Counted from the stretch's first letter, positions 28,494 through 64,000 are shown. The stretch is DNA of 64,000 nt from a virus (IMGVR_UViG_3300029305_006221:1-64000), one strand, 5' to 3'. Made by a program: numbers and translations. Notes: generated by a model from the letters alone, not told the origin.

Positions 28494-28522
28494 ATTATAA
28501 CATAATTTTTTTAGAAAGTCAA
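28494..28522 (-). promoter_or_regulatory. sigma70-type promoter, class A (TTGACT-N17-TGTTATAAT), upstream of the sigma factor gene
   Basis: Motif read directly. Confidence 0.6.
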
Positions 28523-28776
28523 CTATTATATTCTCCTGTGAGCTCTTTTATTGAAACTGGTGGAACTATTGCTATAAACTTTGACCAACTTCCATAGTCA
28601 ATAAAAGTAGCCGTTTCTCCCATTATAATGCGCCAATAAGGATCTTGATGGAAGTTGTTTACAGAAAGATATTCTTTGATTATTTTACACGCTTCTTGAT
28701 AAGAATTAGCTGCGCTAATTGGCTGTTCATTAAGAAGCGTTTCTATACTATCTGATAAAAATATTTTATATCTCAT
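28519..28776 (-). CDS. hypothetical protein
   Basis: 85-aa ORF. Confidence 0.35.
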   Translation of the reverse strand: MRYKIFLSDSIETLLNEQPISAANSYQEACKIIKEYLSVNNFHQDPYWRIIMGETATFIDYGSWSKFIAIVPPVSIKELTGEYNS

Positions 28777-29068
28777 TTATTTCCTCCTTGTTTTCTGATG
28801 CATATGTTTGGAGTATACTACCTATTTTTATGTCTGTTGGATTTCCATACTGCGCCGAAGTAGATTCAAGTTCTTTTTCCTGAAGTTTAGATTCTAATTC
28901 AAGCACTTGCGCCTTTAACTCATCCCTGTCGCGCACGATGGCTTCCATCTCATTTAAAATATTTACAAGTTGTGTGAATTCACAAGCAAGATTAGGAAAA
29001 CTTATTTTATTGTAATAAACAGCTCTTTCAGTGGCTTTATTTCTTAATTCATCTATTCGATTTAACAT
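28766..29068 (-). CDS. hypothetical coiled-coil protein
   Basis: 100-aa ORF. Confidence 0.35.
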   Translation of the reverse strand: MLNRIDELRNKATERAVYYNKISFPNLACEFTQLVNILNEMEAIVRDRDELKAQVLELESKLQEKELESTSAQYGNPTDIKIGSILQTYASENKEEINEI

Positions 29069-29457
29069 AATAATTTCTCCATTTCTGATACATCAACGCC
29101 CTTACCACGAAGATTGTTGATACATTCTTTCAAGTATTCATCATTGTGTTCAGGATAAATAATTTCTCTAGTATAAGCATATTCACAACCACAAAATTGC
29201 GGAACGAAGCCTAATATTGTTCCTCGGTAAGAAGAGTGCCTCCAATTTCGATCAGGATGATAGCCACGACGCTCCATTTCATCCATAACGCAACAGTGAT
29301 ATTCATAAAGATATTCAGGATCATACTTGAATACATAGTCAACTGTTGCATGTTTCTTGCCCCAACCCTTGCCGCGCAATGCGCAACACTCGCGATGCTG
29401 ACCTAGCAACTGCTGTCTTGGAAGGTAGGGTATTAATTGCTGTGCCCAGAGTCTCAT
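29062..29457 (-). CDS. pyrimidine-dimer DNA glycosylase (T4 endonuclease V/DenV-like)
   Basis: MRLWAQQLIPYLPRQQLLGQHRECCAL resembles the N-terminus of the Pyr_excise family. Confidence 0.5.
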   Translation of the reverse strand: MRLWAQQLIPYLPRQQLLGQHRECCALRGKGWGKKHATVDYVFKYDPEYLYEYHCCVMDEMERRGYHPDRNWRHSSYRGTILGFVPQFCGCEYAYTREIIYPEHNDEYLKECINNLRGKGVDVSEMEKLLC

Positions 29458-30147
29458 TTATTTTACCTCCTTAATAAGCAATCCAAAATAATTTTTTTCT
29501 TTGATGCTATTTTTACCATTGATAATATCTCTGCAGTATTGATTAAATGTACTCCGTGAAAATTGTTCACTTGAACAAGCGGCTTCAAGAGTGCGAGAAG
29601 TTGCAATGATTGCAGAATCAGTTTTATCGAATTTAATTGAGGAAAAAGAAGCATTGGGCCAATTATCTCCTATAATAGTAACCAATAGGCTTTTAGTGAC
29701 TGATTTTGATTTTTTAGTTTGAGAAGTTGCGTTTTTCTGCTTTTTCTCTTCTTTAAGACGACGAAATTCAGGCTCTGGAATATTTCCAAATTCAGTATTG
29801 AAAACTATTGAATCCTCAAGTCCTTTTTGCACATTTTCTTTAGGAGTTAACCAAGCTAAATTTGAAAGGTGGTTATTGCGCTTATTATGATCTTTATGAT
29901 CTACAGTCATTCTTTCAGTTGTTTTAATAGGGCGCCAAGTAAGCATTACAAGGCGATGAATTGGAATTAAATAGTCTTTTTTTTGTTTTCTTCTTTCTTC
30001 GCTGTAATACCAACAATATCCTTCACCTGTTTTTATTTCATAATCACTTTTATCTTTGTTTCTTATACGACCATAAGTTGAAACATAAACTTCGTATTCT
30101 TTATTAAACCTCCAACGCTCAAAACTAATCTTAAGAATCGGTAGCAT
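29458..30147 (-). CDS. HNH homing endonuclease
   Basis: HNH_3-like DHKDHNKRNNHLSNLAWLTPKEN. Likely start MLPILK. Promoter at about 30185-30228. Confidence 0.6.
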   Translation of the reverse strand: MLPILKISFERWRFNKEYEVYVSTYGRIRNKDKSDYEIKTGEGYCWYYSEERRKQKKDYLIPIHRLVMLTWRPIKTTERMTVDHKDHNKRNNHLSNLAWLTPKENVQKGLEDSIVFNTEFGNIPEPEFRRLKEEKKQKNATSQTKKSKSVTKSLLVTIIGDNWPNASFSSIKFDKTDSAIIATSRTLEAACSSEQFSRSTFNQYCRDIINGKNSIKEKNYFGLLIKEVK

Positions 30148-30226
30148 TTTTCTCCCTCTCTTCTTTCTTTTTTTCTTCATTTTATAACTTATTATATCAT
30201 AAATTTTTAATAAAATCAATAAAAAA

Positions 30227-30248
30227 GCCATCGGCGCAAACCGATGGC
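30227..30248. terminator. bidirectional hairpin terminator after the MVP-like gene
   Basis: GCCAUCGG-CGCAAA-CCGAUGGC flanked by A-runs and T-runs. Confidence 0.6.
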
Positions 30249-30264
30249 TTTATTCTACTTATTA

Positions 30265-62550: not shown

Positions 62551-62745
62551 TTATACAATATTCAAAAGGCTATCTTGCAATTTTTCATAGCTACAACGTG
62601 CTGACCATAACGGACAACTTAGACAGTCCATACCTTGACAGTCCACATTTGCACAGATATCCCCAAGATTATCTACTGCAGTTTGATATGCGATTATTTT
62701 CTCTTTTTCTTCTTTTTCATATACTGCTACTATTTTTGTTTTCAT
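62551..62745 (-). CDS. small cysteine-rich protein
   Basis: CANVDCQGMDCLSCPLWSARC. Last gene before the terminator at 62533-62548. Confidence 0.35.
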   Translation of the reverse strand: MKTKIVAVYEKEEKEKIIAYQTAVDNLGDICANVDCQGMDCLSCPLWSARCSYEKLQDSLLNIV

Positions 62746-62747
62746 AT

Positions 62748-63080
62748 TTAAACCCCCAAACTTTTCATTATTGCTTTGTTGACCTTTTGCATAAGGCTTT
62801 CATCAATTTCGGTTACCAACCATTTTAATCTGCTCTTGTCTATCGTACGCAACTGTTCAGTTAATATACAACTATCTTTTATTAGTGCGCCTGAGAGATT
62901 TATGTGAGTTGGTATGCGCTTTTTTGATTGAACTGAAGTGATTGCCGCAACGATTGTGGTTGGCGCATTTTTATTGCCTATATCATTTTGAATTATAAGC
63001 ACTGGTCTATATCCCCCTTGCTCGCTACCGACGACGGGCGACAAATCAGCATAATATATTTGTCCTCTTTTGATTTCCAT
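62748..63080 (-). CDS. MazF/PemK-family endoribonuclease toxin-like protein
   Basis: RGQIYYADLSPVVGSEQGGYRPVLIIQNDIGNKNAPTTIVAAITS matches the PemK/MazF N-terminal signature. Confidence 0.6.
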   Translation of the reverse strand: MEIKRGQIYYADLSPVVGSEQGGYRPVLIIQNDIGNKNAPTTIVAAITSVQSKKRIPTHINLSGALIKDSCILTEQLRTIDKSRLKWLVTEIDESLMQKVNKAIMKSLGV

Positions 63081-63106
63081 ATGTATCTCCTCTCTATAGA
63101 GGGCGA

Positions 63107-63397
63107 TTACTCGCCCTCACACACTGCAATGATTGCTTCCATTATGGAATTATAGCGGTAAAGCGGAACGAACCAATCATCAGCTACATAATGAGATATC
63201 AAAACCTCTCCTGTGGTTTCGCTAACTACCTCTACCTCACGAAACGCATTTTTTACTATTTTATAGATTTTCTTTGCCTTATCTTCGGGCAAATCGTTTA
63301 AACGGAGTGTGAGATTTGGAACTTCGTTCGACTTTGCAGTGATGGTGCAAGTGTGGATAATTCTGTCAATATTAGAGTTTATTTCTTTTGGTCTCAT
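63107..63397 (-). CDS. hypothetical protein upstream of the MazF-like gene (candidate antitoxin or partner)
   Basis: 96-aa ORF 27 nt upstream in the same operon. Consensus promoter at about 63425-63455. Confidence 0.3.
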   Translation of the reverse strand: MRPKEINSNIDRIIHTCTITAKSNEVPNLTLRLNDLPEDKAKKIYKIVKNAFREVEVVSETTGEVLISHYVADDWFVPLYRYNSIMEAIIAVCEGE

Positions 63398-63498
63398 AGA
63401 TATGTACCTTTCCTTTCTTTATCTTACATATATATTATACCATATACTTAATGATTTGTCAATATGGCATTTTGCACAAACTTTTGGGTGGGGACTTG

Positions 63499-63807
63499 TC
63501 AACAATAGACAAGTCCCATATCTCTCCATCTCAGTATGGAGATTTGCTCACAAGCGCGCCCAACCTCAAGCGCCTTTTTGAGAGTGCTCTCACGATGTGA
63601 TTTATCAATGTAGTATATGCCATTGCTAAACCATACACCGCAGTTACCGCCATATGCCTTAACAGCATTGATTGCTTCTCTTGCTGTGCGACATTCTATA
63701 CCCTCTGTTGCGACTTGATAACCTGTCTTATATATGATAGGCGCGCCCTTCTTGAGTGTTAAACCGTCATTATCCTTCAGCTTGAGAATTGAACGAATGT
63801 TAATCAT
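63499..63807 (-). CDS. hypothetical protein
   Basis: 102-aa ORF. Promoter at about 63835-63865. Confidence 0.35.
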   Translation of the reverse strand: MINIRSILKLKDNDGLTLKKGAPIIYKTGYQVATEGIECRTAREAINAVKAYGGNCGVWFSNGIYYIDKSHRESTLKKALEVGRACEQISILRWRDMGLVYC

Positions 63808-64000
63808 AGTATGTATTACCCCTTTCCTTTATTACACTTATATTATATCACAAATGCGGGATTTTGTCAATAGTCAAATGTAACAAAGTTTTGAAGAAAA
63901 AAAGACGATGATTTGTGCAGATTGCATAAAACGTGCCGCGGCGGGGGATTGCGGCACGGCGAGTGAAAAAAGACTGCTGTGTTAGCAGTCCTTTAAGTCA

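Follow-up and report, generated by a model that had tools for sequence, protein, structure and literature searches.

Two designs of primary-sigma-type promoter and a SigA-like sigma factor gene in a large uncultured phage with TAG-recoded late genes

Transcription of phage SPO1 proceeds as a cascade, from early sigma-A promoters to middle genes served by gp28 and late genes served by gp33/34; the SPO1 sigmas are small, divergent proteins, and their promoter consensus is unlike that of sigma-A. In T4, sigma-70 is remodelled by AsiA and MotA, and the middle promoters keep the -10 element and the TG motif and replace the -35 element. Here we analyze the promoters and the sigma factor gene of a 64,000-nucleotide stretch of viral DNA (IMGVR_UViG_3300029305_006221:1-64000; the window), which corresponds to positions 66,025-130,024, in reverse orientation, of a 135,988-bp JGI metagenome contig. 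The phage is uncultured, about 136 kb in size, and has TAG-recoded late genes; the minus strand is the coding strand over most of the window. To our knowledge, transcription signals have not been described for this phage family. "Complete" RpoD-like sigmas, probably captured from cells and recruiting the host core polymerase, have been reported from large phages and cyanophages (Iyer et al. 2021, PMC7824862), and the paper on phAss-1, a distant relative, mentions neither promoters nor sigma (PMC10607447). All promoters seen in the window are of the primary-sigma (sigma-A) type, in two discrete designs, termed class A and class B. We put at roughly one half the probability that class B is used early through host sigma-A, and that class A is a delayed set which host sigma-A is able to initiate and which is afterward sustained by the phage sigma in place of sigma-A.

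A first-pass annotation of this DNA had proposed two promoter classes in separate parts of the window, with at least 22 promoters in class A; the division is confirmed, and it is conserved across the phage family. Against an expectation of 0.13, the window has 15 exact matches to TTGACA-N16-18-TATAAT, of which 13 fall between 56045 and 63870 on the minus strand. For TTG-N17-TGN-TATAAT there are 37 matches (35 on the minus strand), with 0.05 expected; 22 of these are class A, 21 on the minus strand (5179-49800) and one on the plus strand (52928-52956). The literal pattern given for class A, TGTTATAAT, has only 14 occurrences, the base at -13 being A or T. One plus-strand match, at 6449-6477 and outside class B, looks like chance. 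A position weight matrix (PWM) scan, in which shuffled sequence reached a maximum of 10.5 and called sites scored 13-50, added variants without the TG or with a weak -35 (at 9072, 11944, 21625, 34325, 54493, and 61381, and at 49828 on the plus strand). The PWM scores split the classes cleanly except for a hybrid at 56755, and the classes are also segregated by genome position, class A at about 5-54 kb and class B at 56.0-63.9 kb.

The extended -10 element had been taken as the mark of class A only. Defined as TG at -15/-14, TATAAT, and a 17-bp spacing to TTGnnn, it is found at 36 sites upstream of genes, in both classes; all 14 class B sites have the TG, mostly as T(A/G)TG(G/A)TATAAT, and the element therefore does not discriminate between the two. 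What does discriminate is the -35 hexamer (TTGATT versus TTGACA followed by AA), the A+T fraction of the spacer (0.96 versus 0.70), the base at -13, and the upstream region.

Class A comprises about 27 sites, which lie ahead of replication, nucleotide-metabolism, tRNA, and phage sigma genes. The consensus is a cassette of about 45 bp, TTGATT-TTTTaTAAAAAaT(A/T)TG(A/T)-TATAAT-ATATATGTAAg, with a spacer of 96% A+T and the leader ATATATGTAAG. Of 23 sites, 13 have TTGATT as the -35 hexamer, TTGAAA and TTGACT being minor variants, and about 30% of the sites abut a GC-rich terminator hairpin whose T-run continues into the -35 element. The TTGATT sites, each identified on the minus strand by both pattern and PWM, are fused to a terminator at 14773-14801 (upstream of gyrA), 25831-25859, 30191-30219, and 48578-48606; they precede the gene of a protein with a Major Vault Protein (MVP) shoulder domain at 32801-32829, fall in the tRNA region at 37762-37790, 39125-39153, and 42867-42895, mark the divergent junction with a plus-strand block at 49772-49800, and occur further at 41371-41399, 43165-43193, 45456-45484, and 46180-46208. 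Other hexamers, identified in the same way on the same strand, are TTGACT at 5179-5207 (helicase/primase operon), TTGAAA at 20216-20244 (terminator-fused, upstream of gyrB), 37442-37470 (tRNA region), and, as a tandem pair, 47557-47585 and 47657-47685, TTGTTT at 33628-33656, and TTGACA, with a spacer that passes from an A tract to a T tract, at 8452-8480. The promoter of the sigma gene, TTGACT-N14-TGT-TATAAT at 28494-28522 on the minus strand, lies 48 nucleotides upstream of the open reading frame (ORF).

The plus-strand block (50.0-54.3 kb) is likewise served by class A-type promoters, namely, a TTGACT site without TG at 49828-49856 (PWM) and a TTGACT site inside the block at 52928-52956 (pattern and PWM). 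The remaining class A-like calls come from the PWM scan and lie on the minus strand: a site without TG at 9072-9100 (score, 28.1); a possible TTGACA site, again without TG, at the end of the ligase gene, 11944-11972, which is the weakest call in the set (19.6); a TTGATT site without TG at 21625-21653, directly upstream of the suppressor tRNA(CTA) gene; a weak site with 18-nucleotide spacing at 34325-34354 (12.7); and a site with a degenerate -35, TGGATT, at 54493-54521. One more, at 61381-61409, sits within the class B cluster and is fused to a terminator at 61409-61434; its counterpart in the related contig L388 has TTGATT.

Class B has the consensus TTGACA-AA, a variable spacer (70% A+T), and TRTG(G/A)TATAAT-ATATATGT(C/A)AAGAGG. 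All 14 centers listed for it in the first-pass annotation are real, and 13 are exact TTGACA-N17-TATAAT; the site listed at 56770 is there, at 56755-56783, but reads TTGACT-N17-TGGTATAAT. An upstream UP-like tract of the AAAAATTTTTT type had been ascribed to the whole class and is present in 8 of the 14 sites, and the other six have TTTGTGCA/TGCACAAA motifs instead. We call the former subtype B1. Its A-tracts, as in AAAAAATTTTTTGAAAAAATTTCAAAAACCTC, are phased about 10 bp apart from -40 to -65, with centers near -42, -52, and -63, and place A/T tracts at -40 to -60 as in a UP element. Subtype B2 has one or two copies of the octamer TTTGTGCA/TGCACAAA between about -40 and -90. Of the 11 exact copies of this octamer in the window, 10 fall in the 9-kb class B region (54907-63919; binomial P = 3e-8), and it may be a putative operator for a regulator. 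Copies are paired at 60820/60862, 59119/59161, and 62444/62456, twice with a spacing of 42 bp, and the octamer also stands ahead of TTGACA promoters in the distantly related contigs L106, L107, and L143 and in phAss-1.

All class B sites in the window lie on the minus strand. The B1 sites are exact matches to the consensus at 56045-56073 (also called by PWM), 56636-56664, 57585-57613, 58435-58463, 58942-58970, 60035-60063, 60239-60267 (in tandem with 60035), and 62228-62256. The B2 sites with an exact consensus are at 59060-59088 (TTTGTGCA at 59119 and 59161; in tandem with 58942), 60781-60809 (TTTGTGCA at 60820 and 60862, 42 bp apart), 62395-62423 (TGCACAAA at 62444 and 62456; in tandem with 62228), 63434-63462 (TTTGTGCA at 63473), and 63842-63870 (TGCACAAA at 63912). 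The sixth, 56755-56783, was found by pattern and PWM and is a hybrid, with TTGACT, an AT-rich spacer, and TTTGTGTA/TGCACAAA upstream, that forms a tandem pair with 56636. A promoter had been expected before each small gene, but promoters and genes are not one-to-one, and there are four tandem pairs (62400>62233, 60244>60040, 59065>58947, and 56760>56641). The stretches between paired promoters were considered as small RNAs; folding gave no convincing structure, and we read the pairs as tandem promoters.

The one sigma gene in the window (27549-28445, minus strand) encodes a SigA/RpoD-like protein of 298 amino acids with Pfam matches to region 1.2 (residues 26-57), region 2 (63-128), region 3 (143-218), and region 4 (232-285). 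The expectation of a full sigma70-like factor behind a class A promoter was borne out, the protein being a complete, primary-like member of the sigma-70 family with regions 1.2 to 4, and the arrangement recurs in every sigma-bearing relative examined. Region 1.1 is missing, with only about 25 acidic residues before region 1.2, and alignment begins at SigA residue ∼99-117. The best NCBIfam models are RpoD, below their cutoffs (341 and 337 bits against 555 and 572); the RpoD_Cterm score is 304 against a cutoff of 354, and the best PDB matches are SigA of C. difficile and B. subtilis. Identity to bacterial SigA over regions 2-4 is about 50%, and phage sigma lineages are 46-57% identical among themselves; cellular primary sigmas of different phyla share 66-83%, and we therefore regard the phage sigmas, with their lower values, as fast-evolving copies of a primary sigma.

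The protein keeps Q437, H455, E458, E585, R588, and Q589 (E. coli numbering), which we take to serve the -12 position (Q437), the TG motif (H455 and E458), and the -35 element (E585, R588, and Q589). R584 is replaced by K in this sigma and in 120 of 120 of the closest cluster representatives (61-97% identity), from a metagenomic clade of at least 120 clusters. In the same 120 members T440 is replaced by S, G, or A and R441 mostly by K, this sigma having T440S and R441K. These substitutions fall where the two promoter classes differ, at -31/-30 and -13.

A nucleotide search of INPHARED with the class B and sigma regions gave no relative, and at the DNA level no cultured phage is close. Terminase matches, at 60-92% identity, came from at least 183 IMG/VR contigs, many with lengths of 100-175 kb; more distantly, the terminase is related to those of the cultured or named phages Geobacillus E3, Enterococcus H1 and EF1, and phAss-1 (TerL 42% identical). 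Contigs with sigmas 44-67% identical (L001, L002-4, L005, L068, L072, and L074) all have class A promoters, and in L001, L002, L005, L068, L072, and L074 one lies directly upstream of the sigma gene. A search with the L002 sigma as query returned identical contigs only. In a survey around the MVP-like gene, meant to reveal sigma-less close relatives, a sigma was found within 10 kb in 8 of 45 loci, these being partial loci that cannot prove absence. Class B cores, sought by pattern, cluster on some sigma-bearing contigs and on other contigs, and the two-class layout persists in relatives at sigma identities of 44-67%.

Across the family loci (1.3 Mb, 398 distinct sites), spacers with at least 13 of 14 A+T positions accompany TTGATT in 44 of 50 sites versus 56 of 245 for TTGACA (P = 3e-18). 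In contig L139 (49% GC), class B spacers are GC-rich and the adjacent class A spacers are all-A/T; the class A spacer therefore reflects selection rather than base composition. Some B2-type promoters in L106, L107, and L139 point against genes, into a GC-rich hairpin that resembles the terminator of the opposite-strand gene, and may yield short antisense RNAs; the window has no opposite-strand B2-type sites of this kind. Two further database entries were set aside. OR844995.1 (L325-L327; "Staphylococcus phage Kay," unverified), a 137.6-kb wastewater contig, encodes a 43%-identical RpoD-like sigma, has zero TTG-N17-TGnTATAAT sites and no sigma-70-type promoters, and is unrelated and uninformative as a relative; it does indicate that a phage RpoD-like sigma alone does not predict this promoter architecture. 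MT835471 proved to be a bacterial contig.

Promoters of class A type also occur in bacteria. A scan with the class A core (TTGATTTT-N5-AAA-N4-TGNTATAAT) was run across 185,579 species genomes, and the matches listed were mostly single sites in metagenome-assembled genomes (MAGs) of Clostridia from gut and rumen (Oscillospiraceae, Ruminococcus, Christensenellaceae, and Eubacteriales). Among them, several TTGATT-type sites immediately precede host tRNA genes and one is upstream of RNase P RNA, which places TTGATT within the range of host sigma-A. Many of the listed sites are preceded by AAAATTTCAAAAAACTC (as AAAATTTCAAAAAACTC-TTGA..), a design shared with phage class B1; class B thus copies the design of host stable-RNA promoters. 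Together, the TTGATT-type tRNA and RNase P promoters and the B1-like upstream design point to gut or rumen Clostridia as the probable hosts. TTGATT is enriched in the phage, at 13 of 23 class A sites versus 4 of 59 in an unbiased sample of strong host promoters from the same loci (P = 3e-6), where TTGACA and TTGACT account for 10 each, and the host sites lack the all-A/T spacer and the ATATATGTAAG leader. We therefore view class A as a phage-specific exaggeration of a host-compatible design. A phage alternative-sigma cascade of the SPO1 gp28 type would show a distinct consensus, but class A remains TTGAnn-N17-TGnTATAAT.

On the reading we prefer, unmodified host sigma-A holoenzyme would transcribe class B first, as an immediate-early set. 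Class A would form a delayed set started by host sigma-A, which must make the first phage sigma since the sigma gene itself stands behind a class A promoter. The phage sigma would then bind the host core polymerase and, by positive feedback, sustain or amplify class A and perhaps every phage promoter, acting as a sigma-A substitute rather than as a factor of new specificity; class A would also drive the amber suppressor tRNA that the late arm probably needs. The host-sigma early program proposed in the first-pass annotation for class B fits the UP-like tracts, full consensus, and small-gene cluster, its timing being a prediction. The accompanying proposal, of a middle program dependent on the phage sigma or an extended -10, is not supported where it makes class A need the phage sigma: the sigma keeps most primary-type residues, host genes have TTGATT promoters, the sigma's own promoter is class A, and phAss-1 is sigma-less. 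Class A promoters read strictly by the phage sigma are thus unlikely, and the link between the phage sigma and one promoter class is a hypothesis.

Several points weigh against the preferred reading as well. The early timing of class B and the delay of class A are themselves what we infer from sequence. The discriminator and leader (ATATATGT) are common to both classes, which suggests that one enzyme form could serve both. R584 and R441 are kept in more distant sigma-bearing lineages that also use TTGATT, so no residue change tracks the promoter design. The promoters of the late arm are also TTGACA-N17-TATAAT, and the phage sigma could equally act there. Finally, the two-class layout is independent of a phage sigma, since the sigma-less phAss-1 has it. 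This complete genome (135,976 bp, code 15) gave no sigma-70 homologue by tblastn or by a profile hidden Markov model (HMM) search over all ORFs with TAG as a sense codon; the same HMM search gives 460 bits on the window. Upstream of its replication, nucleotide-metabolism, and tRNA genes are about 28 copies of a cassette, TTGACA-TAAAAAAATTTTTATGG-TATAAT-ATATATAGAAAATGAG, with TTGACA, TTGACT, or TTGCAA as the -35 of the equivalent cassette, and in its class B-like cluster the spacers are variable and GC-rich, UP-like tracts are present, and a TTTGTGCA motif occurs as well. A comparison of this one sigma-less genome with four sigma-bearing lineages is suggestive of a TTGATT -35 that goes with the sigma.

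Such conserved-spacer cassettes beside a class B-like cluster, in a genome with no sigma, speak for the alternative that host sigma-A alone reads both classes, which we consider a serious though clearly less probable account. The phage sigma would then be tied to neither class, and other factors would set timing and strength. Candidates are a phage or host DNA-binding protein acting on the palindrome-like T-tract/A-tract spacer of class A, a protein acting on the TTTGTGCA sites of class B, and a differing dependence on UP elements and the carboxy-terminal domain of the alpha subunit; the sigma itself might work on late-arm promoters, on host genes, or in nongrowing or sporulating hosts. The TTGATT-type host tRNA and RNase P promoters, the mostly retained primary-type DNA-contact residues of the sigma, the confinement of TTTGTGCA to the class B region, and the HTH_27 and HTH_7 proteins encoded in the window are all in keeping with this account. 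Against it stand the constant placement of the sigma gene behind class A and the enrichment of TTGATT in sigma-bearing lineages only, and neither motif is linked to any regulator.

A tentative and rather unlikely variant of the two-sigma scheme is that the K584/K441 clade of sigmas, as a diverged copy of the primary sigma, has coevolved with the TTGATT/all-AT-spacer/TG(A/T) cassette as a semi-orthogonal pair, such that host sigma-A and class B would be silenced while class A keeps firing. If true, this would be a sigma switch made wholly within primary-sigma sequence space. PHROGs searches with ten early proteins gave almost no matches and no anti-sigma candidate. Less probable again is a fully orthogonal class A, read efficiently by the phage sigma only, through an altered preference at -35 and -13 (K584, S440, and K441), in an early-to-middle switch like that of SPO1. 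K584 is present in 120 of 120 clade members and K441 is nearly invariant, both at promoter-contact positions in primary sigmas, and the classes do differ at -31/-30 and -13. Yet the sigma's own promoter is class A, host genes use TTGATT, a perfect -10 element plus TG is readable by host sigma-A without a good -35, and TTGATT promoters of the same kind serve lineages that have R584 and R441; on this last ground we reject R584K as a general cause of the TTGATT -35. Least probable of all is that the classes record module ancestry and have no temporal meaning, one module being an exchangeable accessory cluster and the other the core, with the repeated cassettes of each kept alike by recombination: whole cassettes are alike within one genome, leader and Shine-Dalgarno sequence included, and a class A-like cassette sits within the class B cluster, but the design rules persist at ∼45% sigma identity and 33-49% GC while class B spacers drift with genome GC, which argues for selection on the sequence itself and not only homogenization.

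The class B gene cluster occupies 54953-64000 of the window on the minus strand, with 14 promoters, about 22 small genes, and 4 terminators in 9 kb. It runs about 4.5 kb past the window end, with some 4 further promoters, and stops at a divergent intergenic region, for a total of about 13.5 kb and about 30 small genes; nearly all are without Pfam or PHROG matches. The exceptions in the window are genes for an exonuclease-like protein (57659-58375), a deoxyribonucleotidase-like protein (58470-58913), and a PemK/MazF-like toxin (62748-63080), all on the minus strand. The toxin gene is preceded by an ORF of 96 amino acids (63107-63397, minus strand) that has no family match and is a possible antitoxin. 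The class B unit behind the promoter at 57585-57613 includes a tRNA-Thr(AGT) call (57013-57082, minus strand), below the Rfam gathering score and apart from the main tRNA array at 36-44 kb.

Across the divergent junction, the class B cluster adjoins the TAG-recoded terminase arm (L201:1-5236, opposite strand), where ORFs are intact only with TAG as a sense codon; the TerL-like ORF of 582 amino acids has 7 TAG codons and neighboring ORFs have 3-6 each. In-frame TAG in late genes and a suppressor tRNA(CTA) (21520-21595, minus strand), downstream of the class A-like promoter at 21625-21653, together identify code-15 (TAG-to-Gln) recoding. Just upstream of this tRNA, at 21650-22400 on the minus strand, is what looks like a homing-endonuclease-type coding sequence interrupted by several in-frame TAG codons, and recoding therefore extends beyond the late arm. 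Late-arm promoters are sparse and combine TTGACA with a spacer in which an A tract is followed by a T tract (..AAAAATTTT..), as at L201:∼5256(-) and ∼560(-), L328:12149(+), and L388:7495(+) and 12199(+); the window site 8452-8480 has a spacer of this late-arm-like form. The late-arm design is closer to the general cassette of phAss-1 than to class A here and may be a third subdesign.

Other features of the window were noted in passing. There are 22 tRNA calls, and Rfam found nothing besides tRNAs. The tRNA at 42416-42490 (minus strand) has a four-base anticodon (GGAT) by ARAGORN and is confirmed as a tRNA by Rfam (45.5 bits). The MVP-like protein (830 amino acids; 30265-32757, minus strand) combines the shoulder domain (E = 3.5e-25) with a weak vault repeat and is kept at 52-84% identity in 45 related phage contigs. 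GyrB is apparently split, an ORF of 509 amino acids (18630-20159, minus strand) ending inside the Toprim domain and being followed, after a gap of about 210 nucleotides, by one of 235 amino acids (17710-18417, minus strand). A Pfam scan of 59 window proteins gave one alpha/beta-type small acid-soluble spore protein (SASP), one HTH_27, one HTH_7, and two GIY-YIG matches; the SASP match is consistent with a spore-forming host, and a motif search for the gene behind it did not locate the gene.

For this large family of uncultured, TAG-recoded Clostridia phages from gut and rumen, the analysis yields a transcription map with more than 40 units and a regulatory model that can be put to the test. 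The suppressor tRNA stands behind a class A-type promoter, and in this way the model ties the recoding switch to transcription. Should the phage sigma indeed favor class A, the system would be a natural case of promoter discrimination within primary-sigma specificity and would supply strong and compact promoter parts for use in Clostridia.

Among described phages, phAss-1 and the proposed Phassvirus group of TAG-recoded gut siphophages (PMC10607447) are similar in size (∼136 kb), late TAG-to-Gln recoding, suppressor tRNA(CTA), large tRNA arrays, and predicted Clostridia hosts. phAss-1 shares the two-class promoter layout and differs in the absence of a sigma-70 and in its TTGACA-TAAAAAAATTTTTATGG-TATAAT cassette. 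The phage sigmas of Iyer et al. (PMC7824862) are, like the present one, full-length and close to cellular RpoD; their cognate promoter sets are undefined there, whereas here a clade of at least 120 clusters has an invariant K584 and an associated promoter architecture. The TRTGnTATAAT of both classes recalls the sigma-A promoters of Gram-positive bacteria in which a "-16 region" (TRTG) is combined with upstream UP elements or phased A-tracts, a resemblance of design only. The class B cluster, in which small genes without family matches form many short operons, densely packed behind maximal sigma-A promoters beside a genome landmark, is built like the host-takeover module of SPO1, and in both phages a phage-encoded sigma is made from phage promoters; unlike in SPO1, the sigma is primary-like and class A stays within the sigma-A consensus. 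As in T4 middle promoters, class A retains an excellent extended -10 and the change is mainly in the -35 and spacer, but homologues of AsiA and MotA were not detected, the phage having an entire sigma gene in their place, and the class A -35 still starts with TTGA. The proposed logic resembles the SPO1 and T4 schemes but employs a primary-like sigma and two promoter classes that both lie within the primary-sigma consensus.

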